From Octopus vulgaris (lineage: Eukaryota), in assembly GCA_951406725.2 (NCBI GenBank), contig OX597824.1:56482001-56546000 (forward strand): a stretch of DNA of 64,000 nucleotides, read 5' to 3'. A program made the translations under genes and the position numbers. Under the pieces are notes generated by a model that was given only the letters and a program-made list of their open reading frames with translations, was not told where the DNA came from and ran no database searches. Each line of letters begins with the position of its first letter. Position 1 is the stretch's first letter. Positions 6,393-60,855 of this stretch are shown one piece after another.

Positions 6393-6548
6393 ATATATAC
6401 TCTTCAGTACTGAAAAGTTGTATGAAATAAATCAGAATCAGTAGTAAAACAAAATGTGCAAATTGACTAAACATCCATTTCTTGTTTAAATCTGTCTGAC
6501 TATAAGGAAAGCTTTAATAGGCAAGTTTTTGATCTTTCTGCTTAAAAC

Positions 6549-19857: not shown

Positions 19858-20704
19858 CTAGCAGAATTGCCCGGCGTTGCTCGGGGCTGAATTGCTTGAA
19901 AGTACTGTTAATGATTGCACTGAATTATGATGATTATTCAGGTAAATATTGATATAAGTTTACGGTGGGAGATAAGGACTTAACGATAAAACGTGTGCCA
20001 TTGCATTGTTTTGGGGGAACCAAATTTCTGATGAGCATTATAGGGTCACCAACTTTAAGTTTGAGAAAGTGTGGTGGTAGTCTGGGGTGCTCAAAGGAAT
20101 TGAGTACCTCTATTGGATAGTTGATGATGTCCTCTGGGTCAGGAGTTGTATCGATAGACTGATATACATAGACTTCCCCAGGAATGAGTTTTAGCATTTC
20201 ATCATTAATATGGTGAACAGTTTTATTCCTCGGGGCCAGTATAGCCTTTTTGCCAATCCAATCCATATTCTGATAATTAGCTTGTAGATCTGGGAACACT
20301 GCATCTCTGAGATCAGAAGGCGTCTTAACAATGGTACAAATGGAATCGATGGCAATATTACCATTTTCATCCCCTGGTATTTTGCCTTCGCCAAGTGCAA
20401 GGAGGGTGTGAGGAAATGCTGCTGATGTGATATTACGTCGCATATGAGCACGCATATTGGTGTGAAGTTTGAGAGTTACTTCCCTTTATTAAAAAAAATA
20501 TGCATTAAAATGGAAAAAAATGATGGTAAATTATTTGTAAAATCATAGACTCATCGTAGACGCACGCTAATACCCAGAAGGGCTCGATATGAATCACGAC
20601 TATAAGATACCCGGTTTTGGTTAAACTGCATTGCAAAATGTGGGAGTAGTTAGGAATCTAAATCGGAGTAGACAGACACACAACCTTTCTTTTATATATA
20701 AATA
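19858..20704 (-). mobile_element. Helitron deletion derivative retaining a PIF1-like helicase fragment
   Basis: CTAG and hairpin at 19858-19886; ORF 19934-20455 with AILAPRN, LKLKVGDPIMLIRNL...CNGTR; 5' part matches 1166-1360. Confidence 0.88.
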
Positions 20705-21550
20705 TTTTCGTCCTAAAAAACTTTGTATGGATTGAATGGTTACCTCTATGGAAATATATACACGCACATTATACATACATGTGTGTATAGATGAATATAT
20801 AAATACATTTAAATATCTATATACACTTTTGGGCGATCTTTCTTTTTCTTAGAGATAACTTTAGATCTTATATTCGTCCTAAAAAACTTTGTATGGAGTG
20901 AAAGGTTACCTCTATGGAAATATATACACACACATTATACATACATCTGTGTATAGATGAATATATAAATACATTTAAATATCTATATACACTTTTGGGC
21001 GATCTTTCTTTTTCTTAGAGATAACTTTAGATCTTATTTTCGTCCTAAAAAACTTTGTATGGAGTGAATGGTTACCTCTATGGAAATATATACACACACA
21101 TTATACATACATGTGTGTATAGATGAATATATAAATACATTTAAATATCTATATACACTTTTGGGCGATCTTTCTTTTTCTTAGAGATAACTTTAGATCT
21201 TATATTTGTCCTAAAAAAACTTTGTATGGAGTGAAAGGTTACCTCTATGGAAATATATACACACACATTATACATACATCTGTGTATAGATGAATATATA
21301 AATAAATTTAAATATCTATATACACTTTTGGGCGATCTTTCTTTTTCTTAGAGATAAATTTAGATCTTATTTTCGTCCTAAAAAACTTTGTATGGAGTGA
21401 ATGGTTACCTCTATGGAAATATATACACACACGTTATACATACATGTGTGCATAGATGAATATATAAATACATTTAAATATCTATATACATTTTTGGGCG
21501 ATCTTTCTGCTACTTGGATATAGATCTTATATTCGTCGTAAAAAACTTTC
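20705..21550. repeat. Minisatellite, ~165-bp unit, about 5 copies
   Basis: The motif TCGTCCTAAAAAACTTTGTATGG recurs at ~165-166-bp spacing. Confidence 0.93.
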
Positions 21551-34409: not shown

Positions 34410-34447
<38 letters not shown>

Positions 34448-34448
<1 letters not shown>

Positions 34449-36315
34449 TTCAACAATTGAGGGTAAAATTAATTAATTATTAATCAATTTCACCAAGTAT
34501 TCAGTATGTAAAGGGACCATTTTAGGCGAATTCAAAATATTACATTATATATAAGGGCTTAGTAAAATAAATTACTTTGCCACATACTGAACTCATTAGA
34601 AATAGCAGCTAAAGAAATTTCTTCAGCTATTTCTAATACTTAAAGAAGATCTCTCTCAGATAGTGCTTGCCTAGACCAACTCACAAAGGTATGGGGGAAA
34701 AAACATTAAAAAATCAAGTGCAAAGGTTATTTGAGAACGTACGTTTCTAGATTAGTCAATTCGACATTTCTTTCTTCAGCTCAGAATTCCTTGAATCGGA
34801 TTTGGGAACACTGAAAGTCGGGAGCATACCCTTTCGGCTTCTTATCACTTCTAGAATTCTGCTCGAACTAAAAGTGCTACCAAATTCGAATATGCAAGCG
34901 AAGAATTTCTGCTCTCCCCTTTCCACCAGCGTGGGTTAAAATTGACAAACACCATGTATTAACGGTGAAAACCGCATCATTTAACAGAGAAAGATGAATT
35001 ATAATTTCAACAATTGAGGGTAAAATTAATTAATTATTAATCAATTTCACCAAGTATTCAGTATGTAAAGGGACCATTTTAGGCGAATTCAAAATATTAC
35101 ATTATATATAAGGGCTTAGTAAAATAAATTACTTTGCCACATACTGAACTCATTAGAAATAGCAGCTAAAGAAATTTCTTCAGCTATTTCTAATACTTAA
35201 AGAAGATCTCTCTCAGATAGTGCTTGCCTAGACCAACTCACAAAGGTATGGGGGAAAAAACATTAAAAAATCAAGTGCAAAGGTTATTTGAGAACGTACG
35301 TTTCTAGATTAGTCAATTCGACATTTCTTTCTTCAGCTCAGAATTCCTTGAATCGGATTTGGGAACACTGAAAGTCGGGAGCATACCCTTTCGGCTTCTT
35401 ATCACTTCTAGAATTCTGTTCGAACTAAAAGTGCTACCAAATTCGAATATGCAAGCGAAGAATTTCTGCTCTCCTTTCCACCAGCGTGGGTTAAAATTGA
35501 CAAACACCATGTATTAACGGTGAAAACCGCATCATTTAACAGAGAAAGATGAATTATAATTTCAACAATTGAGGGTAAAATTAATTAATTATTAATCAAT
35601 TTCACCAAGTATTCAGTATGTAAAGGGACCATTTTAGGCGAATTCAAAATATTACATTATATATAAGGGCTTAGTAAAATAAATTACTTTGCCACATACT
35701 GAACTCATTAGAAATATGTGGCAAAGTAATTTATTTTACTAAGCCCTTATATATAATGTAATATTTTGAATTCGCCTAAAATGGTCCCTTTACATACTGA
35801 ATACTTGGTGAAATTGATTAATAATTAATTAATTTTACCCTCAATTGTTGAAATTATAATTCATCTTTCTCTGTTAAATGATGCGGTTTTCACCGTTAAT
35901 ACATGGTGTTTGTCAATTTTAACCCACGCTGGTGGAAAGGAGAGAGCAGAAATTCTTCGCTTGCATATTCGAATTTGGTAGCACTTTTAGTTCGAGCAGA
36001 ATTCTAGAAGTGATAAGAAGCCGAAAGGGTATGCTCCCGACTTTCAGTGTTCCCAAATCCGATTCAAGGAATTCTGAGCTGAAGAAAGAAATGTCGAATT
36101 GACTAATCTAGAAACGTACGTTCTCAAATAACCTTTGCACTTGATTTTTTAATGTTTTTTCCCCCATACCTTTGTGAGTTGGTCTAGGCAAGCACTATCT
36201 GAGAGAGATCTTCTTTAAGTATTAGAAATAGCTGAAGAAATTTCTTTAGCTGCTATTTCTAATGAGTTCAGTATGTGGCAAAGTAATTTATTTTACTAAG
36301 CCCTTATATATAATG

Positions 36316-36319
<4 letters not shown>
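34448..36319. repeat. ~556-bp tandem repeat (2.3 units) followed by a ~600-bp inverted copy, within (TA)n
   Basis: Units start at 34448, 35005 and 35560; 35716-36319 is the reverse complement of ~35096-35697. Confidence 0.95.
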
Positions 36320-41452: not shown

Positions 41453-42332
41453 TATGTATCTGTGTTTTGAACATTTGTGCTTCTCTAAAGAGTATTGAGC
41501 TACACGCATTGACTTTGTTATCATTTTTCTTTTTCCTCACACTTTTGATGGAATAAGATAACCCTGACTTCAAAAATAAATAAAGTTTAGTGATGCCTCA
41601 ATGATATATTCATGTAATCCACAATTGCATGGAGAAACAAGTATGAAAAAGAGCAGATGTGTGTATGTGTGTGTTAGTATTTTGCTTAGCTAGTTAGTTC
41701 ATTTTGAAATTTTGCATTTCTAATATATTGTACTCTATTAGTTTTTAAGTGTCATTTGTACTAGATGCAGATTACATAATGAGGTCTAGCCATTGGTATT
41801 ATTATTTGAAATCTGTCCAACTTGATTGAAGTGTAATTATTTTGACTGATGTGCTGAGATATTTTAAACATTCTGAGTGGAACTTTTGACTGAAATGCTG
41901 AGATATTTTTAAGTGGAACTTTAATGTTGAGCAAGAAGATCAAGCCACTCCCTGCTTTTATCACTTATTGAGTGTTTTTTTTTTATTATTGTTTCATTAC
42001 CAAAATATTGTGTGTTTATATGAAGTTCTCACAAATAACGTTGTTGATTGTATTTGTGAGAATATTTTTTCAAGCAACTCCTTTTTTAGATGCTTTATAG
42101 TGTATATTTTCTAGTTAGTTTGTTTACGGTTAATGCAACGCTACTTATTATGTTTCCTATTTGGAAATAGATAAAATTATTTAGCTTTTAAAGTAGGGAT
42201 ATATAATGATAAAACCGTCACTTATAACTTACTTAAGTGTTATCTTTATACGTAAGTCCTAACTACACCTATATAAATGCCATAGAGAAATATACTTTCT
42301 GGAATGCTAACGAACATAACCGAGCATGTATG

Positions 42333-42695
42333 TTAAATATATTTTCGTGTTCTTTTAACCGCTATAAAAAAATAACAGACTGGAATTGTTAGCCCGTCTC
42401 TTGTAATTTCGATCAATTGTATCTTGTCCTCCCTCTTGTATAGAAGTGTGGCTACAATCCAGCCTACCTCTACTTCGGGAGGGGTGGGGGCATTTAAAAT
42501 GTTTTTCCGGGACGTCCTACGTCCCAGATATAAAGGTAAAAATAGAATATTTCCTCTTTGCAAGTTCGAGTTGAGTACTCCCTTGCACGCTCCGTTGACT
42601 CGAACCTTGCTTCTATTGTGGCGAATTTACCGCCTCTGATTAGATACCTTCCATAGTCGCACCAAGACACTTTTCAAAGGTGCTTTCCTCCATGT
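42333..42695 (-). pseudogene. Old degenerate ORF1 relic (C), downstream part
   Basis: Frameshifted translation MEESTFEKCLGATM..IRGGKFATIEARF..ILFLPLYLGRRTS..PPEVEVGWIVATLL aligns by eye to the ORF1 of A and B. Confidence 0.75.
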
Positions 42696-42941
42696 TGTTT
42701 TATTATTACCCACAAGGGGCGAACACAGATGGGACAATACATTCTGATGATGGGGTCAGACAAACGAATGGGTTTTTACAATAAATCGGGTTTAAAAATT
42801 TTCATGAATAACAATAAATGGACAAAAATCGAGTGATAGGACAGACCGGAAGACATTACGGGTGGAGTGGGTGCGGGTTTAGCTCGGACCCCACGAGCCC
42901 CGCCTCCCCACTGATACTTTTGGTTGCACTTGGTATTACAT

Positions 42942-45900
42942 TTATGTTGTAACTTTCATTCGCAACTTCCGTGCTACATCCTTCCATCGTTCTTCATACG
43001 CTCTCCTAGTCAGGCATATTCTCTCCAGCCCTATCTTCCTTTTCAGGTGAAAGATGAAATAATTCATCAAACCAGGGCCGGAGATGAACTTGCCTGACTG
43101 TAAACCTTTCATTCTCGTCTTCCATATCACCTCTTTCGCGATTGCTACTACAACGAGAAAACGAAACTTACCTTCATTCACGAGGAAATCCGGTGGGTCA
43201 ATTTTTGTAATCGACTCAGTCGACAGCTGTACTCTTCGTGTACCTGACAACAGGTGTTCGGCATAAACCCACACCTCAGACACGTCCGGACAATGAACAA
43301 TCGCGTGCGGGACGGTTTCCCTATCCCGCCCGCATCTTGGACATATCGGACTGTCTTGGCCACCGTGCCTTGCGAGTTTATCCCGAACAGGTAGAGCTCC
43401 TCTGTAGCATTGCCATGCCAGAGACTTCTGGAAGTTGTCCAGTGTCCTTGGCTCGAACGTACGTCGGAACAGACTGGCCAGCTGATTATCGTCGAGACCT
43501 AGGGTTTCCCCCAAGGTATCTTCACATTCCGCCTCTACCAACCCTCTATAGAAGAAAGTGGTGGAACCCCCACCGCAGGCGTTGCCCGAGCGACGGAATA
43601 GCAGGAGAGCCTTGCGACACTCCGTGTACCAAGTACCAAGTTTCGATCTACGATTCAGCCAGGTTTCCCATCCACCGAAACTAGTGAACTTGGGAAACAT
43701 CAGTTTTGCTAGCGAAGACCACACCCGTTCACCATCCAGGTAGAGCCACAGATGTCTTAACCTCAGCGCATGTCTGCGCATCATCAGCCAAGGCATCCCT
43801 AGCCCACCCTTTAACGGTTGTTGACAGCAAGTAGAGCGTTTCACAAGTGGTTTCCCGCCCTTCCACAAGAAGTAGAAGAGCTGTCTTTCCAACTTGATCA
43901 ACCACGAATCAGGGCAAGGAACGACGGAAAGGCGGTAGGTGATAACCGATGCGATAAACACATTGGCCACCTCCGCCCTCCCTTTCAGGGATAGCCACCG
44001 CCAAGACCAGGTCTTGGCTACTGCAGCCACCTTGCTCGTTACCTCGCCCCAATTCTTCTCTATTTGGAGGTCTGGACCGAACCAGACCCCTAGCAGTTTA
44101 ATCGGACCCTCCGTCCAACGTCCCACGACGCTGTCAGGAGGCATCGACTTGCCTCTCCAGGTGCCGAGTTGCAAGCCGACTGACTTTTCGCGATTAACTT
44201 TTGCTCCTGTCACCGTCTCGTACACCTCTATGGCCTTGCCTACTTTACATAGGTGGTCCATTTCGGTTACGATGATGGTGATGTCATCCGCGTACGCTGA
44301 CACTGATTTTCCATTACCTGGCTGTCTCGGGATGCCGCTCAGTTTTCGCAGTAATGGCTCAAGAGCCATCACGTACAAAAGCGGGGAGAGCGGACACCCT
44401 TGACGAACCGAGCGTTTGATTTTGAACGGCTTCGACAAGAAGCCGTTCACCCGAACTACCGAGTCGATGTTATCATAAATTTCGATAATCCACCTGAGGA
44501 ATCCAAGGCTCAGCCCGAACTGTGCCAGGGCAGATACCAGGTAACGATGGTCGACCCTATCAAAAGCTTTAGATTGGTCTAAATGGACCAGTGCCCCACC
44601 CTTGCCAGAATCACTATTAAACCCCTCTATAGTGTACCGCATTAGATGGAGATTATCCTGAATGGATCTGCCCGGAACGGCACATGTCTGTGCCCCTCCG
44701 ATCAGACCATCCGCGACACGCGCCAATCTTTTCGATAACACTTTGGCCAAAATCTTCAACTCTGTGTTTAGCAGAGTGATGGGCCTGAAATTATCAATGC
44801 ACTCCCCCTTGCTCGGGTCCTTTCTGACGAGAGTCACTACTCCCCGGCGCACAGATCTGGGTATAAGCCCGTTCTGCTGCCAGTTCGCGTAGACCTCCGC
44901 CAGTAGGTGCCCGAACAAGTCTGGCATACTCTTATATAACTCATAGGGTAGACCATCCAAACCCGGCGCCTTGCCCGCGCCGCAGTCCGCCATTGCCTCA
45001 ACCACCTCCTCAGGCGTGATTGGCCCTTCACAGCCCTCCGCATCTCGCCCCGATAAGCGCGGCAGACCGTCGAGTAGGTCCGTAAAGGCCCTCCTCCTAT
45101 CCAGTCCGCCGCACTCACCGAAAAGCTGAGCGAAGTGCTCCTGAAAGGCCTCACACATCTCCTCGGGTTCGTTTATCAACTCACCTTGTTGGTTCGTCAA
45201 AGATCGAATCGTGGCATCGTTACCATGCTGAGCTTCCACCACTCGGGCCCATCTCACGGCGTTGATTCCTTCACATCCCATATGACGGATTCTAGCCCTG
45301 ACAATGCAGCCCATGTGTTTGGCCTCGAGGTGCTGGTTTAACACCAGTCTCTTGGCCGCCACCTGAGCCGCAGAGCCAGTTTTCATGGCTTCCTCTAATT
45401 CCTTAACTAGAGTAGTTTCCCTTCTAGCCTCTCTAGCCACTACTCCTATGCTATATCTAATAGACTCAAACTTGATGGCTCGTTTGAGGGCGTACCACCA
45501 TTTGTTATTAATGATGGTACCAGATAGTGCCCTCTGAATTATATTCCTAATCCGGTCTTTGTACTCCTTAATCGCCAAAAGGGACGTATTAAGTTTCCAG
45601 TAACCGGATCCTCTATTTTTAACCTTATCTATGTCAAGCTTACAAGTGACCATTTTATGATCACTGTAGCTGATCGGGTAAAACTGTGGACACTTAGCTA
45701 TTTTACTGTCTACTTTTCTAATTAGTATTCTATCTAGATACGACCTGGAAGATCCGTCGCTGTTTGACCATGTCCACAATGGAGCGTTCGGAAATTCCAG
45801 CCTATAAGGATCTGCTAGCTCAAAGCGGCTTAGCAGTTCCATGAAGCCACTGTTGCCTTTTCTATCTGGACACGAGCCAACATAATCTACATCCGCTTTG

Positions 45901-46337
45901 CAAATTGTGTTAAAGTCTCCTAGCACCACTAATGAATGCGAAGTACCAAGAAAGTTTTCTAGTTCACGAAAATAATCACTTTGCCCTGTATGGTTGGGTG
46001 CGTAAATTGCAACCAGTCTGATAACTTTACCATTACTGAACGTCAAATCCATGACGACCAGCCTACCTTCTGGATCTGCAAAAATTAACTTTTTCTCAGA
46101 AACCCGGTTTCTTTTTAATAGGACCAACACCCCACTCCCGCCTGTAGGACTGCCAGGAGAGAAAAAACTCTCGTAGCCGTCAAACAGCGGGAGTAGACCT
46201 CTTGGCCCCTCTAGCCGGGTTTCTGTAGCAACAATAACATCTAAATTACGCGACCTGATATCATGCAGGAAGCGACCTTGCTTCCAGCCTGCTCCCAGGC
46301 CGCGCACATTTAAACAACCAACATAAATGTAATCCAT
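42942..46337 (-). CDS. LINE ORF2: APE endonuclease, reverse transcriptase and C-terminal CCHC; uninterrupted 1131 aa
   Basis: APE motifs LNVRGL, ATET, IYAPN, GDFN, LDRIL, SDHK, WKLN. RT motifs KAPGLDG, RPITLLN, DQSKAFDRV, VRQGCPLSP, YADD. C-terminal CPRC...ETVPHAIVHC. Confidence 0.96.
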   Translation of the reverse strand: MDYIYVGCLNVRGLGAGWKQGRFLHDIRSRNLDVIVATETRLEGPRGLLPLFDGYESFFSPGSPTGGSGVLVLLKRNRVSEKKLIFADPEGRLVVMDLTFSNGKVIRLVAIYAPNHTGQSDYFRELENFLGTSHSLVVLGDFNTICKADVDYVGSCPDRKGNSGFMELLSRFELADPYRLEFPNAPLWTWSNSDGSSRSYLDRILIRKVDSKIAKCPQFYPISYSDHKMVTCKLDIDKVKNRGSGYWKLNTSLLAIKEYKDRIRNIIQRALSGTIINNKWWYALKRAIKFESIRYSIGVVAREARRETTLVKELEEAMKTGSAAQVAAKRLVLNQHLEAKHMGCIVRARIRHMGCEGINAVRWARVVEAQHGNDATIRSLTNQQGELINEPEEMCEAFQEHFAQLFGECGGLDRRRAFTDLLDGLPRLSGRDAEGCEGPITPEEVVEAMADCGAGKAPGLDGLPYELYKSMPDLFGHLLAEVYANWQQNGLIPRSVRRGVVTLVRKDPSKGECIDNFRPITLLNTELKILAKVLSKRLARVADGLIGGAQTCAVPGRSIQDNLHLMRYTIEGFNSDSGKGGALVHLDQSKAFDRVDHRYLVSALAQFGLSLGFLRWIIEIYDNIDSVVRVNGFLSKPFKIKRSVRQGCPLSPLLYVMALEPLLRKLSGIPRQPGNGKSVSAYADDITIIVTEMDHLCKVGKAIEVYETVTGAKVNREKSVGLQLGTWRGKSMPPDSVVGRWTEGPIKLLGVWFGPDLQIEKNWGEVTSKVAAVAKTWSWRWLSLKGRAEVANVFIASVITYRLSVVPCPDSWLIKLERQLFYFLWKGGKPLVKRSTCCQQPLKGGLGMPWLMMRRHALRLRHLWLYLDGERVWSSLAKLMFPKFTSFGGWETWLNRRSKLGTWYTECRKALLLFRRSGNACGGGSTTFFYRGLVEAECEDTLGETLGLDDNQLASLFRRTFEPRTLDNFQKSLAWQCYRGALPVRDKLARHGGQDSPICPRCGRDRETVPHAIVHCPDVSEVWVYAEHLLSGTRRVQLSTESITKIDPPDFLVNEGKFRFLVVVAIAKEVIWKTRMKGLQSGKFISGPGLMNYFIFHLKRKIGLERICLTRRAYEERWKDVARKLRMKVTT

Positions 46338-46346
46338 TACTTACCT

Positions 46347-47727
46347 TTATATCAGTGGTTCGGTTTTTTCTTCTTCTTCCTTCTCTTTTTCTGGGCCTCG
46401 TGGGGGAGTCTGACGTAGGCCCTCGAATATATGTGGAGATGTTACATCCAACCTAAGTGGGCCTACGTCATGGAAGAATTCTGACTTTATCCGCCCGTAA
46501 TCCTTCCGGTCTATTTTGTAAATTGCAAAGTCATTTTTTTTTCTACTCTCTTCACATTGGCCATGGCTGCCAACACGTTTCCGAGTCTGCTATTTGATGC
46601 TTTTACGGCCATATATGAGTTTATTGACTCTTTTTTCTTTTTTAAAATTACTCTGGGAGGGGTGGTTTCCGTTTTTCTTTTTTTTTTTTTCCGATAATTT
46701 TTGCCCACCCCTCCTCATTTATCTTTTCTTCGCTCTTTTTTCCCTCCGCCGCTGGTTCTGCTGTTACCATCACCTCCACACCTTCAGTCTTCCCATCTGG
46801 GCCGTCTGACGCTGCTTCTGGTGACACATTGTCTTCTTTTCCTTTTGGCTTAGGTGCTTCCTGCGGTTTGGGTTGGGGCTGGCATTCCGCCCTTACATGC
46901 CCCTTCTTACCGCAGCCGAAGCACCTCGGCTTTCTGCCCTCTACGAAGACTGTGACTCTTTCATCTTCGCTTATCCTAAGAGTCTCTGGGATCTCTTCCA
47001 GGGTTTGTACTTCTGCTTGTATGGCTATTATTATCTTTTGCCCTTTCCAGAATTCTTCTTCTTCTACGGTGGCCTGGAGGATGTTTATTTTTTCCTCCAG
47101 GCCTACCATAACTGCTGCCACTAGGACTTCGGCATCCGCTTCTGGCGGGATGTTGTTCATAGTGATTTTGGAAGTTCTCTTGCCTTTATACAGGGGTAGG
47201 AGAACAATATCCTCCGCTTTTATGGGTTCCATGGATAGCTTCTTCGCTACCTCCTCTGACGTGAATCTCACCTCCACTGTGCCGTATTTCTTCCCTCGAT
47301 TGATATACGTAATTTTATCCATTATTGGCTTTAAGCAGTTTTCAATCTTTTTCTCCTCTATTTTTTGGATTGCTCTGTTTGTTATACTGAATGTCTTATA
47401 GATTATTCTCCTATTCGAAATATCCTCCTGTATTTTGGCGTTTGAAGCCACGGTTACTTCCGTGCCCTCTTTTGACACACAGTCTGCATGTTTTCCCAGG
47501 TTGTCCACGTTAATTTTTTTAATTTTCTTCCCAGCCACTTCAGCGAATTTTTTTGCTGGAGTTGATGCTGGTACTGGTTTTACCATTTTCTTGGGCGACG
47601 CCGCCTCTTTTTTCTTCGGCGACAGCGCCTCTTTTTTTCTTGGCGACAACGCCTCTTTTTTACTTGGCGACAACGCCGGGTATTCATCCTCGCTCGTCAC
47701 GGGCGAATAAGTGATGGGGGACTCCAT
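46347..47727 (-). CDS. LINE ORF1 (zinc-knuckle nucleic-acid-binding protein), with two apparent frameshifts in A-runs
   Basis: ATG at 47727 (MESP...); knuckle CFGCGKKGHVRAEC. The reading frame can be continued across homopolymers at ~46678-46690 and ~46534-46542 to a TAA at 46347-46349, 9 nt before the ORF2 ATG. Confidence 0.8.
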
Positions 47728-47957
47728 TTTGAACAAATGGCTTTAACAAGCCTTTGGTAATCTAAATTGATTGTAGTTTTCCCCCACTGAGGGGGGAACA
47801 CCAACGCGAAGTCTTCGCGCGAAGGTTGACTTCGTCCGTTAGACAACAATGGACAAAAAAAGGTAGACCAACAGTATATAATAACAGAGATAAGTAGTAT
47901 GAGAGCAAAAATATATATCAACTTACTAATAACGCAATAAATTGATTTCCTCCATGT

Positions 47958-49710
47958 GATTTTATTACTACCCACAAGGGGCGAACATAGAGGGGACAAT
48001 ACAATCGGGGAACTTAAAATAAGAAAGCGAAATGACAAGAAGGGAAAAAATAAAAATAAAAATGACAAATGAAAGAATATTTACAATGAGATGCAAATGC
48101 CCACTCGATCCCCGGAATCGAGAGGTTACATTTTCGTCACATATAGTTCACAATTTTTTTTTTCTTTTTTCTCTTCTTTCTTCTCTCTCCTCTCACAATC
48201 TCACACGTATTCCATAATACCTTTCAAGTCTCTAAAGTCAATCACTGAGCCCTCAGGCAGCCGCTCTTTCATTCGAACACCCGTGTAAAAAATTACACTC
48301 TCTCCAGCTGCTCTGAGGAACTCAGCGACTCTTTCTTCGGGGATCAGAGCAGTCTCCTGCCACTGATCAGTCATCCTGTTGACCCACACATGTCCCTCCA
48401 TACTACATGTCAATTCCTTCATTTCGGGGCTGAAATGGAAGGTTATTAACTTGTAGTAATCTTGTTTCCGTCCTACGTTTTCTCTCGTTTTTCTTTTCGG
48501 GCTTACTTCTTCCTTGTTCTCCTCTCTTTGTTTCTCTCTTTCTCTCTTTTTGCCTTCTTTTCTTTCTCCTTCCTTCTCTTGTCTTTTTGGTTCTTTCTCT
48601 CGTGTTTTATGTTCCTTTTCTTTTTCCTTTTGTGTGCCGTCTTTTCTTTTCGTTTGATTCTGATCTCTCTCTTGTTTTTTTCCTGTTGTTTCTTTTTCCT
48701 TTTTCTTTTCCTGACTCTGTTTTGGTTCTATTTCTTTCTTTTCTTTTATTTCTTTTTCCTTCGTTGACTTATTATTTCCTTTCTCTTGTTGTTTTGTTTC
48801 CTTTTCTATGTTTTCTTTTTCATTTACCGTATTCTTCTTTTCGAGTTCCTGCTCGCACTCCGCTACGAATTCGTATAACGGGCACTCTTTTTTAATGTGC
48901 CCCCTTGTCCCGCACAAGTAGCAGTTTGGCTTTCTTCCCTCTACAATTACACTGAGGGTTTTCTCGTCTTCGATTTCTATTCTATAGGGGAACCTTTCAA
49001 TGTCCTCTTTTGTGGCCATCAAACACAGTTCTACCCCATATCCTCTCCAATTTACTGCGTTGGACTCCTTAAAGGATTCCACCTCCACTTCCTCTTCTGC
49101 TGCTCCTAGAATAGCTGTTGCCAGCCATTCTGTTTTTACTTCTGGGGGTATATTCGGGATTTTAACCCGGACCCCTCTTCTTCCCTTGTATGAGGGCCAC
49201 ATTATAAATGTTTCCGCTCTTAGAACAGTGGTAGCCAGTGAGGCTGCAATTTCTTCCGTTGCACATCTCACCTCCACCGTACCAAATTTTTTTCCTCTAC
49301 TCACGTAGGTCGATTTATCCATTATGTCTCCCAGACATTTTTCGATCTCTGCTATCTCCACTCTTGCCAGTTTCTTTGTACTTTTGTCCTGGGTTCTATA
49401 CGTTACAGTCTTGTTTTCTTTGTCCTCTTTTGCTTTCGCGGGGGGATTAGCTTCACGCTATCACCCTCCCTTTTGAATAGCTTTTCATATTCTTTGATTT
49501 TACTTTTCTCAAAGAAAACATCCTTCACGATTATCGACGAATCATTATTTTTCTTTCCCGTGACCCCCGCGTAAGTCGCCATGACTAGAGGGTCAATTCA
49601 CCTTCTTCGGAAGGTTTCCACAGGTGGAGGCAAACGCCTCGCGCGATATTAATCACTTTACACAACAAAATTTCAACTTCTAATCACAGATAACAACACA
49701 CGTGGGTAAA
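47958..49710 (-). mobile_element. ORF1-only non-autonomous retroelement (HAL1-like 'half-LINE'), full-length copy A1
   Basis: Single ORF1-like frame with no EN/RT; 3' tail nearly identical to element B; flanked by ATTTCCTCCATGTG direct repeats (47945-47958, 49710-49723). Confidence 0.85.
48201..49582 (-). CDS. ORF1-like protein of element A1 (~460 aa, one frameshift in a G-run at 49440-49445)
   Basis: ATG at 49582 (MATYAGVTGKK...) joins the 386-aa ORF across the homopolymer. Motifs RGKKFGTVEVR, PSYKGRR, VEGRKPNCYLCGTRGHIKKEC; K/E-rich tail. Confidence 0.8.
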
Positions 49711-49800
49711 TTTCCTCCATGTGTTCAAATATTTTTTTTCCTCTACATTGTATACTTTATAGACAATAGTCTTTTCTGTAATTTAATTTTTTATTATCCA
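49711..49800 (-). pseudogene. Old ORF1 relic (C), upstream part
   Basis: Reads TEKTIVYKVYNVEEKK.FEH-MEE, colinear with NKTVTYRTQDKSTKK (A) and NRRIIYKTFSITNR (B), and continues at 42695 once A and B are removed. Confidence 0.6.
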
Positions 49801-49999
49801 TCTGGACTATTCCATTTCTGCACGGTAATTTTATTTTTAGTTTATTCCCATTCATGTGAAACCACTTATTCAAGTTCAAGTCATTGATGCAATTTTATAC
49901 CAATTGCTATTTTTATTTTTGTTATGTTACAATTATATTATACTTTAGTTTGATTTTAATTATTACTTACTACATATAATTCAATTGTTATTATTATTT

Positions 50000-50269
50000 T
50001 TATTGTCAAAGTGAAAGTATCTGATATAAAATAGAGAAACGTTTTTGTTTCACTTTTAACACGTAATACTGAAATAGTGGAGAAGATATGATATTGCTAT
50101 GGGCTCGCTCTAGGCAAGAAGTTGAACATTTTTTTCCCCATGAAACTACATGAACCCTAAGTAAGGCATGTGTAAAATTTGAATGGAATTGGTTGTGTAG
50201 TTCTCAAGTTTTAAGGAAACACACAGACAGACAGACAGACACACATTCTCAGTTTTATATATATAAAGA
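50000..50269 (-). mobile_element. Helitron 5' fragment
   Basis: Minus strand TCTTTATATATATAAAA..TGTGTGTCTGTCTG, like the 5' ends of the other Helitrons; 3' end not located. Confidence 0.5.
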
Positions 50270-50524
50270 TAATGATGTTACTCTTAAGTTTTTGTTCAGG
50301 TTTTAAGAATTAAATATTACTTAAGAATTAATATATTCCTGCTTATGTTGATAACTGATGTAGCACTTATGTGCTTCTTCAGTTATAAAAACTTTAATTC
50401 AATTGAATTTTAATTCATTTCCATTATTCAACAAGCATAAATATTTATATGTTATTAACATACTTGCTTAATCTTTTTAACAAAAGTGGAATCCATTTTA
50501 ATTTATTTTTTTTATCTATTATAG

Positions 50525-50668
50525 CACAGATTTGGAGCTGATCTCCAACATGAGTTACTGCCAAATTTAAAAAGAGAACTCAGCACTGTCGCATCAACAA
50601 ATTGCGGGAAAGTTGCATACATTTTTGTCAAAAGACTACAGGGAGAGGTGCTGAAAATACTTCAATGA
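50525..50668 (+). CDS. GXYLT1: GXYLT-like last coding exon (absent from the ORF track)
   Basis: T-rich tract plus atAG acceptor at 50523-50524. Phase-0 translation HRFGADLQHELLPNLKRELSTVASTNCGKVAYIFVKRLQGEVLKILQ* resembles the GXYLT C-terminus (LL..L..EL......T.CGK...IF.K.L). Phase matches the donor at 10162. Confidence 0.82.
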   Translation, partial: HRFGADLQHELLPNLKRELSTVASTNCGKVAYIFVKRLQGEVLKILQ

Positions 50669-51754
50669 AAAGACAAAGAAACCATATTCTGTTATTCTTT
50701 TAGTAGTTTCCATAATTTGACTGCAGCCAAGTTTTGTATTTGATCAAATCAATCTCAGTACTATTTTATGAAAAGTTTAAGTTGCCATTTTTGGCACAAA
50801 CGAATGTAACTCAACACACCATTTAACAAATGTAAACATAAATATACATGAACATAGGCACACACAAATACATATATTTATATATATCTTATTATCATCA
50901 ATCGTCATCTAATAGTCTACCACCTTCTCTCTCTCTCTTCCTTTACTCTCTTCTCTTTCACTGTCTTACTCTCACCACAACACTTCTATCACTTCACTAA
51001 AATTCTCTTATGTCTTTTTCAACTGGAGATGAGGCAATTCTCTGATGCAAGGGAACAGAGAAAGACAATATGTGAAGAGGTACCAAAAAGTAACCAGAAA
51101 CTGCAACATCTGCATAAAAAACATCTCTTGTATTAGAAAATATCTGGAGAGATGTTGTAACCAAGATTTCATGTTACCATCAAAGCCACAGAATGGAATT
51201 TTGGAAATTTGAGAACTAAAGAGGCTGTCCTTAATTAAAGCTTGTTCCAGTCATAGATAAGAATTGTGCAGTGATAATTATCTGAACCTACCAATCTGTC
51301 CATGTCACATCACCCTCATTTCCCCATATGTCTGTGCAGATTAGAGCTATGCTTAGTCTCCATTTTGTTTTCATAAGGGCTTTTAAGCTAAAATATTGTA
51401 ATATAAGGTAAAAGTGTAAATATTTTTCACTCCTGTATTTTTAACATACATTATTGTAGCTTTTAAAATCACTTTGAACTCTATTTAATAACCTTTTAAA
51501 CAAATAAACTCCCTAATATTAATGTATATTTTAATAGGAATTAAAAAGATATAATCAATTCATTGAGTTGAAATATTTTTAAAGGCATTTTATATTCATT
51601 TTTTGATTTTTGATTTGGTTTGCAAGATTCTTTATGTGAGTTCGTGTGTTGAAGCATATTCTGTTGTGTCTGAGGAGAGTCATTCTCTTTTAGTGCCTTA
51701 TAATTTAACACGCTCACTGGTAAAATTTCCACTCATTTACTTTTTTATGCCACC

Positions 51755-52090
51755 ACATCATCATCATCATCATCATCATCATAGACATCACCATCACCAT
51801 CCTCACCATCACCATCCTCACCACCACCATTATCCTCCTCCTCACCACCACCATGGCATCATCATCATCATCATAGTCATCACCATCCTCAGCACTGTTA
51901 TCCTCCTCTTCACTGCCACCACCACCACCACAACCACCACATTTCATCGTTATCAATACCATCATCATCATAGTCATCACCATCACCATCACCATCCTCA
52001 TCACCACCACCATTATCCTCCTTCTCCTTCTCACCACCACCACCATCATCAGTTGATAAGTGGTGGTGGTGGTGGTGGTGGTGGTGGTCG
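51755..52090. repeat. (CAT/CAC)n trinucleotide tract switching to (GGT)n; partial duplicate at ~52570-52720
   Basis: Direct inspection; both copies end GGTCGAAGGACAGAG.ACTATTAA. Confidence 0.85.
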
Positions 52091-53519
52091 AAGGACAGAG
52101 CACTATTAAATTATTCACTAGTATTTAACTGGAAGAAGTTTTTTCACTCAGCAGAAAATAATAATAAACAAAAAAACATAAATAAACCATAAAAAACATG
52201 AAAAATTTATTCATTTAGACATATACATACATATATGTGTGTGTGTGTGTGTATTCATTAGTGATAGAAGCAGAAATAGTTCAAAATAGCAATCTGTGTA
52301 TTATACTCAAGCAGATATATCATTCAAACTGTAGTATTTATGTTGAGATAGTATCCTCTTATTGACATATAGTGTTAAAAAACACAGAAATGTATCAGTA
52401 GCAGATAATAATTGGCCAGCAACGATGGTGATATTGCTATAGACATATTTCTGCCTCTTTTGGCTTCATCAGTAGCAAGTATCACCCAGCATCACATGCT
52501 AAAAGAAAGTCAGATGCTTTTATTCTAGTAAAACAGTAATTGCAATATGAGTTATTTTTCAATCACTGCTTTGATGGCAGTTGATGTTCTCTTAGTCATC
52601 ACCATTACCATCCTCACCACCACCACCATTATCCTCCTCCTCACCACCACTACCACCATCAGGTGGTGGTGGTGGTGGTGGTCGAAGGACAGAGTACTAT
52701 TAATTAAATCATTCACTAGTAAGCACATAAATGCGAAACAAGGGGGAAAAAATAGTGGAAAAAAGGCAAAGTCAACCTCGGCAGAATTTGAACTCAGAAC
52801 ATGAAGACAAATGAAATACCGCTAAGTATTTCACTCAGTGTGCTAATGTTTCTGCCAGTTCGGCACCTTATACATGCATACATACACACACACATTCAGA
52901 ACGTAGAAAAATTGACATTAAACCAATAAAACATTAAAAATTATTTTTGTGAGTTAATGACTTGGCCATCAGATATTTTCCAGTCTATGTAACTCATAAT
53001 ATCAATTTATTTCAATTTATTCGATGCATAACTTTGCCAGTCCTTCTTGGCAGCTGGATTAACTGGACTCAGATGCATGAGTGTCTCAATACAAAGGTAG
53101 GAGAAAACATCCTGCTGTAAGCCTTTGACCGCTTTTGATGCATTCTCGCTGGCAAAGTTGCTGAGGTCAATAACAAGCTTCACCTGTAACAAATGTACCA
53201 CCTGCAGGAAAGAATGGTTGCATACTGCTCATTAACTGTTTGCGTTCTTTGATTTTTAGTTTTCCTGTTGTAATGTTTTCATCTAAAGTTTTCATGAACA
53301 GAAGTGGGCAGAGGTTGTGTACATAACAGTCTTGAAGAATACTTCTGGGGTTCCAGAAAGAATTTTGAAGAGTTACCAAAACCTTTGACTACTGACCTAT
53401 TGCAAAGACAAAAATAAATGAATAAAAAACAAAATTTTTTTAAATAGGAAAAGGCAATGAGAAGTGGTGTGGTCTTCATTAATCACAATAAAGATGCAAG
53501 CAGATGGTAGAGGGAGCCT

Positions 53520-56500
53520 TATGTACTCTGCATGTGTGCACTTATGTATGCATGCATGTACATATATATGTACGCATGTATGTATGCCTGCATGTATGTT
53601 TGCATGTATGTATGCATGTATGTATTTATGTATATGTGTATCTACGTATGTATAAATGCATGCTTGCATGTATGTATACATGTATGTATGCCTGTATACA
53701 TGTATGTATGCATGCATTCATGTATGTATGTATGTTTGTACGTATGTATGTATGCTTGCATGTATGTATGTATGCATGCATCTATGTATGCATGCATGTA
53801 TGTATCATTTATGTATACATGCATGTATGCATGCATATATACATACATGTATGCATGCATATATGCATGTATGTATTATGCATGCATATATGCATGTTTG
53901 TATGTATGCATGCATGTATGCATGCATGAGTGCATGTATGAATGCATGTATGTAAGAGTGTATGTACGTATGTATGTATGCATGTAGGTATGTATATATC
54001 TGCATGTATGTATGTATGCATGTATGTATTCATGGATGTACGTATGCATGTATATATGCATGTATATATACATGTACTCATGTATGTATGTACGTATGCA
54101 TGTAGGTATGTATATATCTATGCGTGTATGTATTCTTGGATGTATGTATGTACGCATGTATTATTGCATGGACGTAATCTTGCCTGTATGTATGCATGCA
54201 TACATGCATGCATAAATACATGCATACATACATACATACGTATATACACCCATACATACATGCATTAATACATGCATGCATACATACATATATGCATGCA
54301 TATGTGCATATATGCATACATGCGTGTATATATGCATACATACAAGCATATATACATGCATAAATACATAAAAGCATGCATACATACATGCATGTATACA
54401 TACATGCATGTATACATACATGCATGTATACATAAATAGTACATACACACATGTATACATAGGTGCATGCATACATACATACATGCATACATATATACGT
54501 ACATACATACATGCATACATACATGCATGCAAACATACATACATGCATACATACATATATACATTCATGTATACATACATGCATGTATACATGCGTAGTA
54601 CATAATTACACACATGCATATATTGGTGCATACATACATACATGCATGCATACATATATGCATGAATACATGAATGCATGCATACATACAAACGTACATA
54701 CATACATGAATACATACATATATACATGCATACATACATGTATACATGCATACATGAAATGCATGCATTTATGTATACATGCATGCATGTAGGCATGCTT
54801 ACATACATATATATATAAATAAATACATTTATACATACATACATACATGCAAAAATACATGCATGCATACATATATGCGTACATGTATATATACATGCAT
54901 ACATAAAGGCTTGCATGCATATATGCATGCATACATACGTAGATGCATGCATACTGCATACCTACACACATGCATGTATACATACTTAGTACATACAGAC
55001 ATGCATACACAGATGCATGCATGCTTACATACATACATGTATACATACATGCTTCCCATATATATATATGCAAATGCATGCATATATGCATACATAAAAA
55101 CATACATACAGGAATGCATGCATTCATAAATACATGCATACCTACATGTATACATGCATACATACATGGATGCATGCATGCAAACATACATACATATATA
55201 AAGAAATGCATGCATATTTACATGCATACATACATGCATGCATATATGTATACATGTATATATATAAATGCGTGCATTCATACATACATGCATACATACA
55301 TGGATAGATATATACATACATGCATTCATTCATACATGCATACATACATACATGCATACAAACATACGTACATACATTCATACATACATACATGCATACA
55401 TGTATACATACGAAACTGGCAAGAGTGGAGATAGCAGAGATCGAAAAATGTCTGGGAGACATAATGGATAAATCGACCTACGTGAGTAGAGGAAAAAAAT
55501 TTGGTACGGTGGAGGTGAGATGTGCAACGGAAGAAATTGCAGCCTCACTGGCTACCACTGTTCTAAGAGCGGAAACATTTATAATGTGGCCCTCATACAA
55601 GGGAAGAAGAGGGGTCCGGGTTAAAATCCCGAATATACCCCCAGAAGTAAAAACAGAATGGCTGGCAACAGCTATTCTAGGAGCAGCAGAAGAGGAAGTG
55701 GAGGTGGAATCCTTTAAGGAGTCCAACGCAGTAAATTGGAGAGGATATGGGGTAGAACTGTGTTTGATGGCCACAAAAGAGGACATTGAAAGGTTCCCCT
55801 ATAGAATAGAAATCGAAGACGAGAAAACCCTCAGTGTAATTGTAGAGGGAAGAAAGCCAAACTGCTATTTGTGCGGGACAAGGGGGCACATTAAAAAAGA
55901 GTGCCCGTTATACGAATTCATAGCGGAGTATGAGAAGGAAATTGAAGAAAAGAAGAATACGGTAAATGAAAAAGAAAACATAGAAAAGGAGACAAAACAA
56001 CAAGAGAAAGGAAATAATAAGTCAACGAAGGAAAAAGAAATAAAAGAAAAGAAAGAAATAGAACCAAAACAGAGTCAGGAAAAGAAAAAGGAAAAAGAAA
56101 CAACAGGAAAAAAACAAGAGAGAGATCAGAACCAAACGAAAAGAAAAGACGGCACACAAAAGAAAAAGAAAAGGAACATAAAACACGAGAGAAAGAGAGA
56201 ACAGACAAAGAACCAAAAAGACAAGAGAAGGAAGAAGAAAGAAAAGAAGGCAAAAAGAGAGAAAGAGAGAAACAAAGAGAGGAGAACAAGGAAGAAGTAA
56301 GCCCGAAAAGAAAAACGAGAGAAAACGTAGGACGGAAACAAGATTACTACAAGTTAATAACCTTCCATTTCAGCCCCGAAATGAAGGAATTGACATGTAG
56401 TACGGAGGGACATGTGTGGGTCAACAGGATGACTGATCAGTGGCAGGAGACTGCTCTGATCCCCGAAGAAAGAGTCGCTGAGTTCCTCAGAGCAGCTGGA

Positions 56501-59500
56501 GAGAGTGTAATTTTTTACACGGGTGTTCGAATGAAAGAGCGGCTGCCTGAGGGCTCAGTGATTGACTTTAGAGACTTGAAAGGTATTATGGAATACGTGT
56601 GAGATTGTGAGAGGAGAGAGAAGAAAGAAGAGAAAAAAGAAAAAAAAAATTGTGAACTATATGTGACGAAAATGTAACCTCTCGATTCCGGGGATCGAGT
56701 GGGCATTTGCATCTCATTGTAAATATTCTTTCATTTGTCATTTTTATTTTTATTTTTTCCTTTTCTTGTCATTTCGCTTTCTTATTTTAAGTTCCCCGAT
56801 TGTATTGTCCCCTCTATGTTCGCCCCTTGTGGGTAGTAATAAAATCACATGTATACATACGAACATACATACATGAGTGGCTGCATGCATACATAGGTAC
56901 ATACATGAATGCATACATGTATGTATGCATACATATATGCAAAAATACATACATGCATACATGTATAGATATATATATACACACATACATGCATACATAC
57001 ATACATGAATACATACATGCATGTATGCATGCATACATCCAAGCATACATAATGTATACATGCATACAGATGTGCTTGCATACATACATACAAACATACA
57101 TGCATGCTTACATACATGCATGCTTGCCTCTATACATACATACAAACAAACATACATGAATTCATACATACATAGATGCATACATGTATTCATGCATACA
57201 TACATATATACATAGATATATACATGCATGCATTCATTTGTGCGCACATACACTCATGCATGCATACATACATGAATATATACATACAACCATGCATGAC
57301 TGCATACATACATTCATACATACATGCATGCATACATTCATGCATACATGCATGTATGCACGTGTATATATATGTACGTATGTATGTATGCATATATGTA
57401 TGTATTTATCTATGTATGCATGGAACTATTCATGCATGCATGTATGTATGTGTGCATGCATGTATGCATATATGCATGCATACATGTTTCTATGTATGCA
57501 TGTCTATATGCATGCATGTATGTATGTATGCGTTCTTGTATGTATGTATATATGTACTTCTGTATGTATGTGTGTATATATGTATGTATGTACACATGCA
57601 GTCATGTATGCATACATGTACGTATGCATGTATACATGTATGTACGCATTCATAAATGCATGTATGTATATAAGCATGCATGCATACATTCTTGCAGGCA
57701 TGTATGTATGAATGCGTTAATATATGTAGGTTTGTGTGTATATATGTAAGTATGCATGCATGCATGTATGTATGCATGTATGTATGTATGCATGTGTTTA
57801 TGTATGTATGTACGTATCTATGTAGGTATATATGTATGCAAGAATGCATGTATTTATGTATGTATTATGTATGTATGTTTGAATGCATGCAAGTTTGTGT
57901 GTATATATGCATGCTTGCATACATGCAAGCATGTATGTATTTATGTATGTGTTTTATGCATGTATGTATGTATGCATTATGTGCGTATGTATATAAGCAT
58001 GCATGCACGTATGTATATATTCATGCATACATGTATATATGTATGCTTGCATATATGCATATATGTATGTATGCATGTATGTATATTTTTATGCATGCAT
58101 GTATATATGTATGTATCTATGTATGTATGCCTGTATATTAGTATGCATAAATGTATGTAAATATGTATTTTTGCATGTATGTTCATATGTATATGTATTC
58201 ATGCATGTATGCATGTATGTATGTAAGCATGTATGTATGTATGCATGCATGCTTGCATGCATTATCTATGTATGTGTGCATGTAACTATGTATGCATGTA
58301 TTCATGCATTCATGTATGTACGTATGTATGTATGTATGTATATATCTATGCAAATATGTATGTATACATACAGGCAAACATACATGCATATCATCCTGCA
58401 TGCATGCATTCATGCATACCTACATACTTACATACATGCATACACACATATATGCATACATACATACATGCAGTCATACATGCACGCATACATACATACG
58501 TACACATGCATATATACATACATCCATACATAAATACATATATATAAATGCATGAATGCATGCATGCATACATTCATAAATAAATACATGCATAAATATG
58601 TACATGGATACATAGATGCGTACATGCATGCATGTACGCATCTATGTATCCATGTATATATTTATGCATTCATGCATTTATATATATGTATGTATGGATG
58701 TATGTATATATGCATGTGTGTACATATGTATGTATGCCTGCATGTATGTATGTATGTATGCATGCATATATGTGTGTATGCATGTATGTAAGTATGTAGA
58801 TATGCATGAATGCATGCATGCAGGGTTATATGCATGTATGTGTGTATGTATGCTTGCCTGTATGTAAGTAAGCATGTATAAATGCATGTATGTATGCGTG
58901 CATACATGAATTTATGTATGTATGTATTTACACATGTTTATGCATGCATATGTGCTTGCATGCATATGTGCTTGCATGCATGCATATATATATATATGTA
59001 TGGTTACATGTAATTATGTATGCATGCATACATTCAAGCATGCGTGTATGTATGTATATATGTATGTATTCATACATGTATTTTATGTATTCATGTATAT
59101 GTGTATGTACCTATGTATGCATACATGCATGTATCTCTTTGTGAATGTATGTATGAAGGAATGTATGTATGTATAGATGCAAGTAAGTATTTATGCATGC
59201 ATTGATGTACGTATGCAAGTATACATGTATACATGCATGTATGTATGCATGTATCCATACATGCTTGCATGTATGTGTATGCATGTAAGTGTGTATGTAT
59301 GTATGCGTGCATGAATGCATGTGTGTATGTTTGTATGCATGCATGTATTTATGTATATATATGTATATATGTACGCATGTATGTATGCATGTATATATGT
59401 ATGCATGAATGCATGTGTGTGTATGTATGTATTTGTGCAATCATGTATGCATTTATGAATGTATGCATATATGTGTGCATGCATACATGTGTGCATGCAT

Positions 59501-59960
59501 ACATGTATGTATGATGCATGCATATATGTATGCATGCATGTATGGATGTATGCATGTATATATGTACGTTTGCATTTATGTACGCATTTATATAAGAATG
59601 TTTTGGCATGTACGCATTTATATATGTATATATGTATACTTGCATGCAAGCATGCATGTGTTTTTGCCTGTATTTTTGTATGCATGTATGTATGTATGCT
59701 TGTGAGTATGTATGAATGCATATATGTATGTATGTATGTATATATGTACGTATGTATGTATGTATGCATGCTTGTAGGTATATATCCATACATGCATGTA
59801 TGTATGTATATCATTATGCATGCATATTTGTATGTATGCATGTAAGCATGTATTATATGCATGCATTTATACATCTATGTATCTATATATGTAACTATGT
59901 ATGTATGCATGTGTGTACGTAAGTATGTATGCATGCATGCATGTATGTACGTACGTGCGT
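53520..59960. repeat. Multi-kb degenerate ATGT/ATGC/ATAC simple repeat with strand switches, interrupted by A2
   Basis: Direct inspection; it generates the many spurious M/H/Y/C/V ORFs. Confidence 0.95.
55412..56846 (+). mobile_element. 5'-truncated second copy (A2) of the ORF1-only element, inside a simple repeat
   Basis: Near-identical reverse complement of ~47958-49374. TSD ACATGTATACATACGAA at 55398-55414 and 56847-56863. ORF frameshifted near 56160. Confidence 0.92.
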
Positions 59961-59989
59961 GAGGAGAAATATGTGTGCAGTTTATTAAC

Positions 59990-60855
59990 ATCACGCCCTG
60001 GAGACGATACAAAGAAGACAAGGATAGGTCATATATTCCGAGAGAGTTAACCTTAGCAAAATCATGAGTAAAAGCAGCAGCAAAGTACAAAGAAAAGAGA
60101 GTTGGGGTAAGGATGTCACCCTGCTTGACACCATTCTCTACAGGAATGGGTCCCGCCATGGCACTACTAACACTGACCCAGGCATCCATCCCATCATGAA
60201 ATGATTTAATTATAGGTACAAAGTAATCCGGACATCCAAGTTTGCCAAGTATTTTCCATAGAAAGGCCCCATTTACAGTATCTAAGGCCTTTGTTAAATC
60301 AATGAATACCTGAACAAGATCCATATTCTGCTCATAGCACTTCTCCTGCATCTGCCTTGCTGTGAAAATCATATCCATTGTCCCTCTACCAGATCGTAAG
60401 CCACATTGAGATTCAAATAGGACATCATTTACGAGACACCCATTCAGACGGGTAAGAAGTATATTTGCCAGAACCTTGCCAGCAGCTGATAGTAGAGCTA
60501 TACCTCTGTAGTTACCACACATTGTTCTGGTTCCTTTTCCTTTATAATTGCATCCTTCCAGTCCTTAGGGATTGCACTATCCCTCCAGACTGTACTAATA
60601 AGTTCATGAAGAGACTGTGTGATGTAATTACCACCAAATCACAAGAGCTCAGTACAAATTCCATCCTTTCCAGGTGCCCTACCTAGATTCAATTTACTTA
60701 TTGATGGCATTAATTCATCTATTGAGGGCGAGGAGTCTAAGGAGCCAAATGATCACTGTTTCATCTGACTCATGGTTTAGGAGTTCAAAGAAATGTTCGA
60801 TCTAGCGATCTGTGATTTCTGTTGATTTAGTAAACAGAGTGGAAGATTCCTTGGA
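59990..60855 (-). mobile_element. RTE/BovB-like LINE fragment
   Basis: CGNYRGIALLS, ESQCGLRSGRGTMDMIF, FIDLTKALDTV, GVKQGD. Confidence 0.85.

Follow-up and report, generated by a model that had tools for sequence, protein, structure and literature searches.

Known ORF1-only retrotransposons and site-targeted Tx1 elements

Non-autonomous LINEs in which ORF1 is present include HAL1 of the L1 clade, HeT-A of the Jockey clade and Ag-Sponge of the CR1 clade, and HAL1 arose several times according to the sections of the reports used here (PMC5786205; PMC5753468). The HAL1 ORF1 is a mammalian L1-type protein (Transposase_22, type II), and type I ORF1 proteins combine RRM and CCHC modules, as defined in the relevant part of PMC5203782. 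At the telomeres of Drosophila, HeT-A, TAHRE and TART, together with other ORF1-only Jockey elements of telomeres, are known for arrays in which ORF1-only and complete elements are mixed; the excerpted account describes repeated losses of ORF2 and ORF1-only lineages that give rise to new ORF1-only families (PMC13534243). Among Tx1 elements, the crocodilian Tx1-Mar occurs with SINEU in Mariner-N4_AMi, and the Xenopus Tx1 element in Tx1D; in these systems tandem insertions sandwich the target site duplication (TSD), and transcription from the flank has been proposed in the portion of the report dealing with them (PMC4494074).

We analyzed a stretch of 64,000 nucleotides from Octopus vulgaris (assembly GCA_951406725.2, contig OX597824.1, positions 56,482,001 to 56,546,000; hereafter the window), in which a protein-coding element, A, stands next to a Tx1-like LINE, B. 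To judge from the excerpts of the sources cited above, A resembles HAL1, HeT-A and Ag-Sponge in possessing only ORF1, in its LINE-type ends and in its presumed dependence on an autonomous partner. It differs from them in having a Tx1-like partner, a clade absent from that list, in its sequence-targeted insertion, in the lack of poly(A), and in an ORF1 that does not descend from its present partner. With the HeT-A/TAHRE/TART system, as excerpted, it has in common the head-to-tail arrays that mix ORF1-only and complete elements; unlike HeT-A, the octopus arrays are interstitial rather than telomeric, reside in a dispersed Helitron, contain a 12-bp spacer and have no known host function. The likeness to Tx1-Mar/SINEU and Tx1/Tx1D, within the portion of the source that covers them, lies in the association of a Tx1 LINE and a non-autonomous partner at a common target in a non-autonomous DNA transposon. 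In contrast to the snRNA-headed SINEs of the Tx1-Mar/SINEU system, the octopus partners encode a selected protein, their target is a Helitron, and their arrays exceed 20 units.

Elements of the window

Element A (47958–49710; 1753 nt), LINE B, the host repeat and the target copies are all read on the minus strand. A is a full-length ORF1-only unit, and 47 of the 49 matches listed for it are near full-length. Its ORF1 (48201–49582) begins at the ATG at 49582 and comprises 465–466 amino acids in intact copies; the window copy lacks one C in the C-run near 49439 and consequently reads frameshifted. The preliminary description had seen in A one ORF1-like frame without EN or RT, and indeed the CCHC-bearing frame stands alone, unaccompanied by EN or RT domains. 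Element B (42696–47945; 5250 nt) is a full-length Tx1-like LINE. Its ORF1 (46648–47727) has 359 amino acids here, its C-terminal part going on in other frames after A-runs, and its ORF2 (42942–46337) is an open frame of 1131 amino acids with an AP-endonuclease (EN), a reverse transcriptase with the YADD motif (RT) and a C-terminal zinc-binding domain (zf-RVT). This domain set is that of Tx1 elements and is shared with the wider L1 group; among the 120 matches listed for the B protein, one is labelled 'Transposon TX1 uncharacterized 149 kDa protein' (38% identity). The closest proteins to the element proteins of the window carry the label Octopus.

A lies directly upstream of B, and the two abut apart from one 12-mer. 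The same 12-mer follows the 3' end of B (42684–42695), separates A from B (47946–47957) and precedes the 5' end of A (49711–49722), and thus flanks both elements on both sides. Beyond it lie the 5' part of the host repeat (49723–50271), which begins with TC followed by a GTCT-type microsatellite, and its 3' part (42366–42683), whose similarity to other copies ends before the terminal hairpin of empty copies. A search of Rfam over 41500–51000 gave two chance matches only, neither an RNA-gene target nor a ribozyme. On the plus strand and outside the Helitron, a 5'-truncated A copy, A2 (55415–56846), is embedded in a CATA/CATG satellite; it corresponds to bases 340–1753 of A with 97.8% identity. 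The 17-bp TSD previously ascribed to A2 is found as an exact duplication on both sides (55398–55414 and 56847–56863), and its left copy begins with ACATG like the main target.

Element A is a multi-copy family

An exact 23-mer from the A knuckle has 95 matches genome-wide at about 37 loci, which places the family well beyond the window, and an A-specific 32-mer from the tail has 97; since these numbers are so close, few A copies are truncated. The tail lies within 1.25 kb of the core in 92 of the 93 copies examined (two of the 92 represent a diverged A-like family), which leaves no room for an ORF2, and in the single exception 450 nt of A are joined to a complete B. The two cores outside these 93 fall within full-length A matches. 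When the stretch from the core up to the tail was searched with ORF2 by tblastn for 67 A cores, the B-fused fragment gave the only match. Ten tail matches without a core match comprise five diverged near full-length A copies, three truncated A copies and two A-like relatives, and none of these ten has a B-like ORF2 inside the unit. Hence, A-type ORF1 is not followed by an ORF2 of its own in the copies surveyed.

A is present without B in the Helitron at loci L010, L118, L125 and L234 and in the 8-copy C22 array. The proposal that A moves as a unit, originally made on the basis of A2, is borne out by three further off-site copies (L228, L229, L232), which, like A2, have duplications of their own of 14–17 bp. 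One of 91 A copies carries 47 rare changes, all 47 of them A>G on the sense strand; this is likely a mark of RNA editing, the pattern that ADAR acting on the template would leave. The spread over some 37 loci, the individual duplications, the 5' truncation and the hyper-edited copy are the properties of an ORF1-only element that multiplies as a unit by retrotransposition. We conclude, with a probability of roughly 80%, that A is a real, young, multi-copy ORF1-only non-LTR element that is likely mobilised by a B-type ORF2.

The ORF1 protein of A

In the assembly, only 4 of 91 A copies have an ORF1 of at least 440 amino acids, and 71 of the 91 are one C short at the same run; the corresponding count of such ORF1 frames for B is 0 of 34 copies. 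In short-read contigs, the extra base at the A C-run is present at full depth in two runs and at 75% in a third, and it accounts for about 59% of the DNA-contig depth in a DNA run. Because the short-read contigs carry this base, the break in the A ORF1 is mostly a homopolymer undercall of the assembly, and a programmed or inherited frameshift was dropped as an explanation; the comparison with reads covered the C-run of A only. Runs presumed to be RNA contain A and the A-A junction, which we do not count as expression.

The ω value for the A and A' ORF1 is 0.16 over 199 codons, and it is 0.12 both for C1 versus C2 and for D versus L150; these values are rough, since dS between the ORF1-only relatives amounts to 1.2–2.5. 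Judged by these codon comparisons, the A ORF1 is under purifying selection. The CCHC knuckle (zf-CCHC) is its only match in Pfam, and sequence searches of the PDB with ORF1 likewise gave matches to the knuckle only. A fold model of residues 2–241, computed from a 20-row alignment that includes B, reached a pLDDT of 84, while the single-sequence fold was poor (pLDDT 45). The best Foldseek match of the model is to the tandem RRM protein IMP3 (RRM12; E = 6.5e-6, with a low TM of 0.30). The protein is therefore predicted to have an RRM-like core plus a CCHC knuckle, a fold that would be in line with type I ORF1 proteins as characterized in the cited part of PMC5203782; the prediction, made with B in the alignment, also agrees with a place of B in the Tx1 clade. 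This sets A apart from HAL1 proper, whose Transposase_22-type ORF1 is absent from it. The idea of a special C-terminal domain exclusive to ORF1-only proteins was abandoned because the ORF1 proteins of B and B'' also have a C-terminal part.

Relatives and origin of the ORF1-only lineages

The arrays contain other ORF1-only families of 1.7–1.9 kb (A', C1, C2, D and E) and the related LINEs B' and B''. A generic knuckle pattern has 2930 matches genome-wide, and 50 loci were examined; an ORF2 lies within 1.5 kb at 21 of 30 loci drawn from the generic matches, and at 13 loci picked for a D-like knuckle a single match of 28% is all that resembles a B-like ORF2 over a distance of about 6 kb.

The ORF1 proteins of A and B are 37% identical over 186 amino acids (E = 1e-45). 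In a tree of 20 ORF1 rows, A groups with A', D and a protein from O. bimaculoides (support 95/98), and an autonomous sister of A is found in none of the 20 rows. A grouping of A with B is rejected by the AU test (p = 0.005), as is a single clade of all ORF1-only rows (p = 7e-6), and a clade of A/D plus C is not (p = 0.43); an earlier tree was already known when the tested groups were defined, so that the p values carry less weight, and the clade tests count a row, P0002, that nests in the tested group. The view that A is not a recent internal deletion of B thus holds, such a deletion being ruled out by the DNA comparison together with the AU test. A single origin of all ORF1-only families is likewise ruled out, and family E is responsible for this rejection.

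Shared tail, common target and the likely partner

A and B were described as ending in nearly the same 50 or so nucleotides without poly(A), and this is what we see: the tails of A (47960–48006) and B (42698–42744) are 91% identical over 47 nt (E = 3e-14), which makes this the strongest match of the two elements at the DNA level and the longest of the strong ones, and neither ends in poly(A). The CCC/GGG stem-loop ascribed to the tails is present in the sequence, but it folds no better than shuffled versions (z = 0.02 and −0.77). The same type of tail occurs in the LINEs B', B'', L191 and L192, in the other ORF1-only families and in an abundant SINE, and it therefore does not single out B. The suggested pairing of A with B is supported, although not as a one-to-one relationship.

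As evidence for an A-B partnership, we give more weight to the insertion site that both elements use than to the tail. Non-autonomous Helitrons begin with 5' TC, end with 3' CTAG preceded by a subterminal hairpin, and insert between A and T. The repeat of about 1.1 kb that flanks A and B begins with TC, and its empty copies (L071, L078, L081) have Helitron-type ends, namely a hairpin, CTAG and then T; going by this match to the signature, the host repeat is a non-autonomous Helitron (for Helentron ends, compare the pertinent part of PMC4067079). Genome-wide, its empty site is matched 327 times exactly and 947 times under relaxed criteria. After the tail, a 12-mer within four mismatches of the target follows in 86 of 92 A copies. 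Another 20 B loci, examined in the order of the match list, include seven that end at this 12-mer, among them all three with an identity to B of 99% or more; most of the others lie at a second site of the Helitron, some 330 nt beyond, at one slightly upstream, or in a different repeat. B thus prefers this 12-mer and a few other recurring sites, a target preference characteristic of Tx1 elements. By eye, an ORF1-only unit stands directly upstream in 10 of these 20 loci and downstream in three, and family A proper adjoins B in none of them.

The tail type carried by several related LINEs would also suit a scenario in which a different LINE mobilises A (B', B'' or some autonomous element, as yet unseen, whose ORF1 is of the A type) and B has no more than the site in common with A. 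A-like units do stand with B' at another target, two A copies (L225 and L232) are located at or next to the target of B' and some B subfamilies, and the 50 loci examined are a fraction of the 2930 knuckle matches. Yet A and young B are alike in age and in copy number (95 and 92 exact knuckle matches genome-wide), they use the same 12-mer and have similar 5' heads, a related ORF2 is found in none of the A/D-clade rows, and B'' and the C/D units have their start in the host some 24 nt upstream of that of A and B. We consider this scenario improbable and favor the use of B's ORF2 by A, which we infer from the common site.

The junctions also hold information on the 5' ends. On the host side, the 5' junction 12-mer is often a variant, with CG in 15 of 31 rows versus 0 of 25 on the 3' side (of these rows, one represents an empty site and another is shifted by one base); among the 100 empty sites listed of the 947, CG was seen by eye in three. 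The same 5' head variants recur on different chromosomes, once at a non-Helitron site (L225), and none of these recurrent variants was seen by eye among the 100 listed empty sites. C-type units sometimes begin with 30–90 nt of host sequence inside arrays. The recurrent 12-mer variants and the host sequence at C-type starts suggest that the RNAs start upstream and carry a target-like head.

Growth of the arrays

Head-to-tail stacking of ORF1-only and complete elements has its best-known example in the telomeres of flies. The octopus arrays are spread over many chromosomes, mostly far from contig ends, and include one of 22 A units plus a single B, one of eight A units alone, and one in which C-type units are followed by A and then B. 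Junctions among full-length units number 56 for A>A, 17 for A>B and one for B>A. Such a strong polarity would be expected if A travelled chiefly in cis, carried along at the 5' end of A-B read-through transcripts copied in full by B's ORF2, and the pairs of the window, C19 and C14 are close in both A and B (0.2–0.3%). Against passage in cis, insertions and arrays that consist of A alone terminate in the tail of A itself, A2 and the other off-site copies have their own duplications, and the trees of neighbouring A and B are not congruent (Mantel rho 0.17, p = 0.13, 17 pairs; with B copies this young, the test has low power). The data thus give no support to a general co-transposition of A with B, and we hold transport mainly in cis to be unlikely.

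That the arrays are mainly a DNA-level satellite, produced by tandem duplication or by Helitron transposition carrying an old insertion, is very improbable. In its favor, adjacent A units differ less (1.0%) than those of different loci (2.6%), 11 of the 56 adjacent pairs are nearly identical, and there is very little variation within the C7 and C22 arrays. Against it, no more than 35 of 71 array members find their closest relative within their own array, the host flanks are 88–96% alike where the best A and B matches reach 97–100%, unrelated families are mixed in the arrays, and neither the edited copy nor the off-site duplications can be explained without an RNA step. The arrays are best accounted for by serial insertion together with some local duplication; DNA-level duplication probably contributes to the longest of them and is unlikely as the main route.

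A possible mechanism

In the mechanism that we propose for mobilisation of A in trans, transcription would start at or upstream of the 12-mer, so that the A RNA begins with a target-like head, and A's own ORF1 protein would package this RNA. A B-type ORF2, acting in trans on the A RNA, would bind its tail, nick at the start of the 12-mer and copy A, and the head may help to join the 5' end of the new copy, which could be the reason that almost all copies are full length. Since each insertion would recreate the 12-mer, units would accumulate one behind the other, for the most part on the upstream side of B; local duplication may add to the growth of some arrays.

More tentatively, and at somewhat less than even odds, one may picture a non-telomeric community of the HeT-A/TART kind: old ORF1-only lineages, of which at least one may predate the divergence from O. 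bimaculoides, would survive by taking on the tail and 5' head of the Tx1-like LINE that happens to be active. The RNA-borne target copy would secure full-length insertion, insertions would renew the landing site and thus build ordered trains in Helitrons, and the ORF1 proteins may also serve the LINE.

Novelty and biological meaning

Both the ORF1-only class, as represented by HAL1, HeT-A and Ag-Sponge, and the targeting of DNA transposons by Tx1 elements are already known; their combination, an ORF1-only, site-targeted partner of a Tx1 element, was not found in the freely accessible literature. A 2026 octopus repeat annotation includes L1-Tx1 families, and the terms 'ORF1' and 'non-autonomous' are absent from its main text and one supplement (PMC13282606).

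Octopus gene models include proteins of such elements, and repeat libraries may merge these trains. The system is young, near-identical among its copies and present at multiple loci, and it brings together, at a defined common site, a non-autonomous LINE that encodes a protein and the LINE that likely helps it. It makes it possible to test outside fly telomeres why an element would keep ORF1 yet drop ORF2, and whether ORF1 acts in cis; the role of tail and head in partner choice and the building of ordered arrays by self-renewing target sites become testable as well.

Additional insertion targets of the A- and B-type elements

The 12-mer flanking the ORF1-only element A (window 47958-49710, minus strand) and the Tx1-like LINE B (42696-47945, minus strand) is one of several insertion points. 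A second target, located in a different repeat, is occupied by the B-related LINE B', by B subfamilies, and by ORF1-only units of the A-like, C-like and E types (L128, L129, L163 at G000:C5:96.89 Mb, L225, L232, L238, L244, L250, L253). Within the same Helitron that hosts A and B, B variants (87-95% identity) together with A-like units use a point about 330 nt more 3' (L239, L246, L247, L254). Units of B'', another relative of B, and of the C and D families have their first base roughly 24 nt before the 12-mer, on its upstream side (L166).

The 5' regions

The predicted folding of the 5' UTRs of both B (window 47730-47860; z -3.2) and A (49580-49722; z -2.3) surpasses that of shuffled sequences, and neither region has a match in Rfam. 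In the host Helitron, some 40 nt separate the 12-mer from an upstream TATAAA motif (window 49750-49770), a candidate promoter for the arrays.

The 3' tail in other repeats

A very common SINE-like repeat of about 184 nt ends in the CCCC-TTGT-GGG/AATAAA type of tail found in A and B (L060:113-560, L062, L065). The 3' ends of two LINEs (L191, L192), whose ORF2 is 66-73% identical to that of B, abut the start of this repeat. A single C-type unit (L056, ~6410-6450) differs from the rest in terminating with a run of about 35-40 A residues 3' of AATAAA.

Other repeats in the window

Long inverted and direct repeats at window 34447-36319, 100% identical and with arms of 605 nt, are possibly an assembly artefact or a fold-back. 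A tandem repeat with a period of 166 nt spans 20549-21513, and the CATA/CATG satellite contains an RT-like fragment of 229 aa (59875-60564) from an unrelated LINE.

Unusual copies of A and B

At L228, an old D-like ORF1 is interrupted by a 156-nt tail fragment of A, with a 14-bp duplication, and at L114 (G000:C7:100.14 Mb) a complete B is joined to an A fragment (379-826) at a short common stretch. A/G changes are densely clustered in the ORF1 of a B copy at L145 (G000:C1:8.24 Mb), a pattern suggestive of editing.
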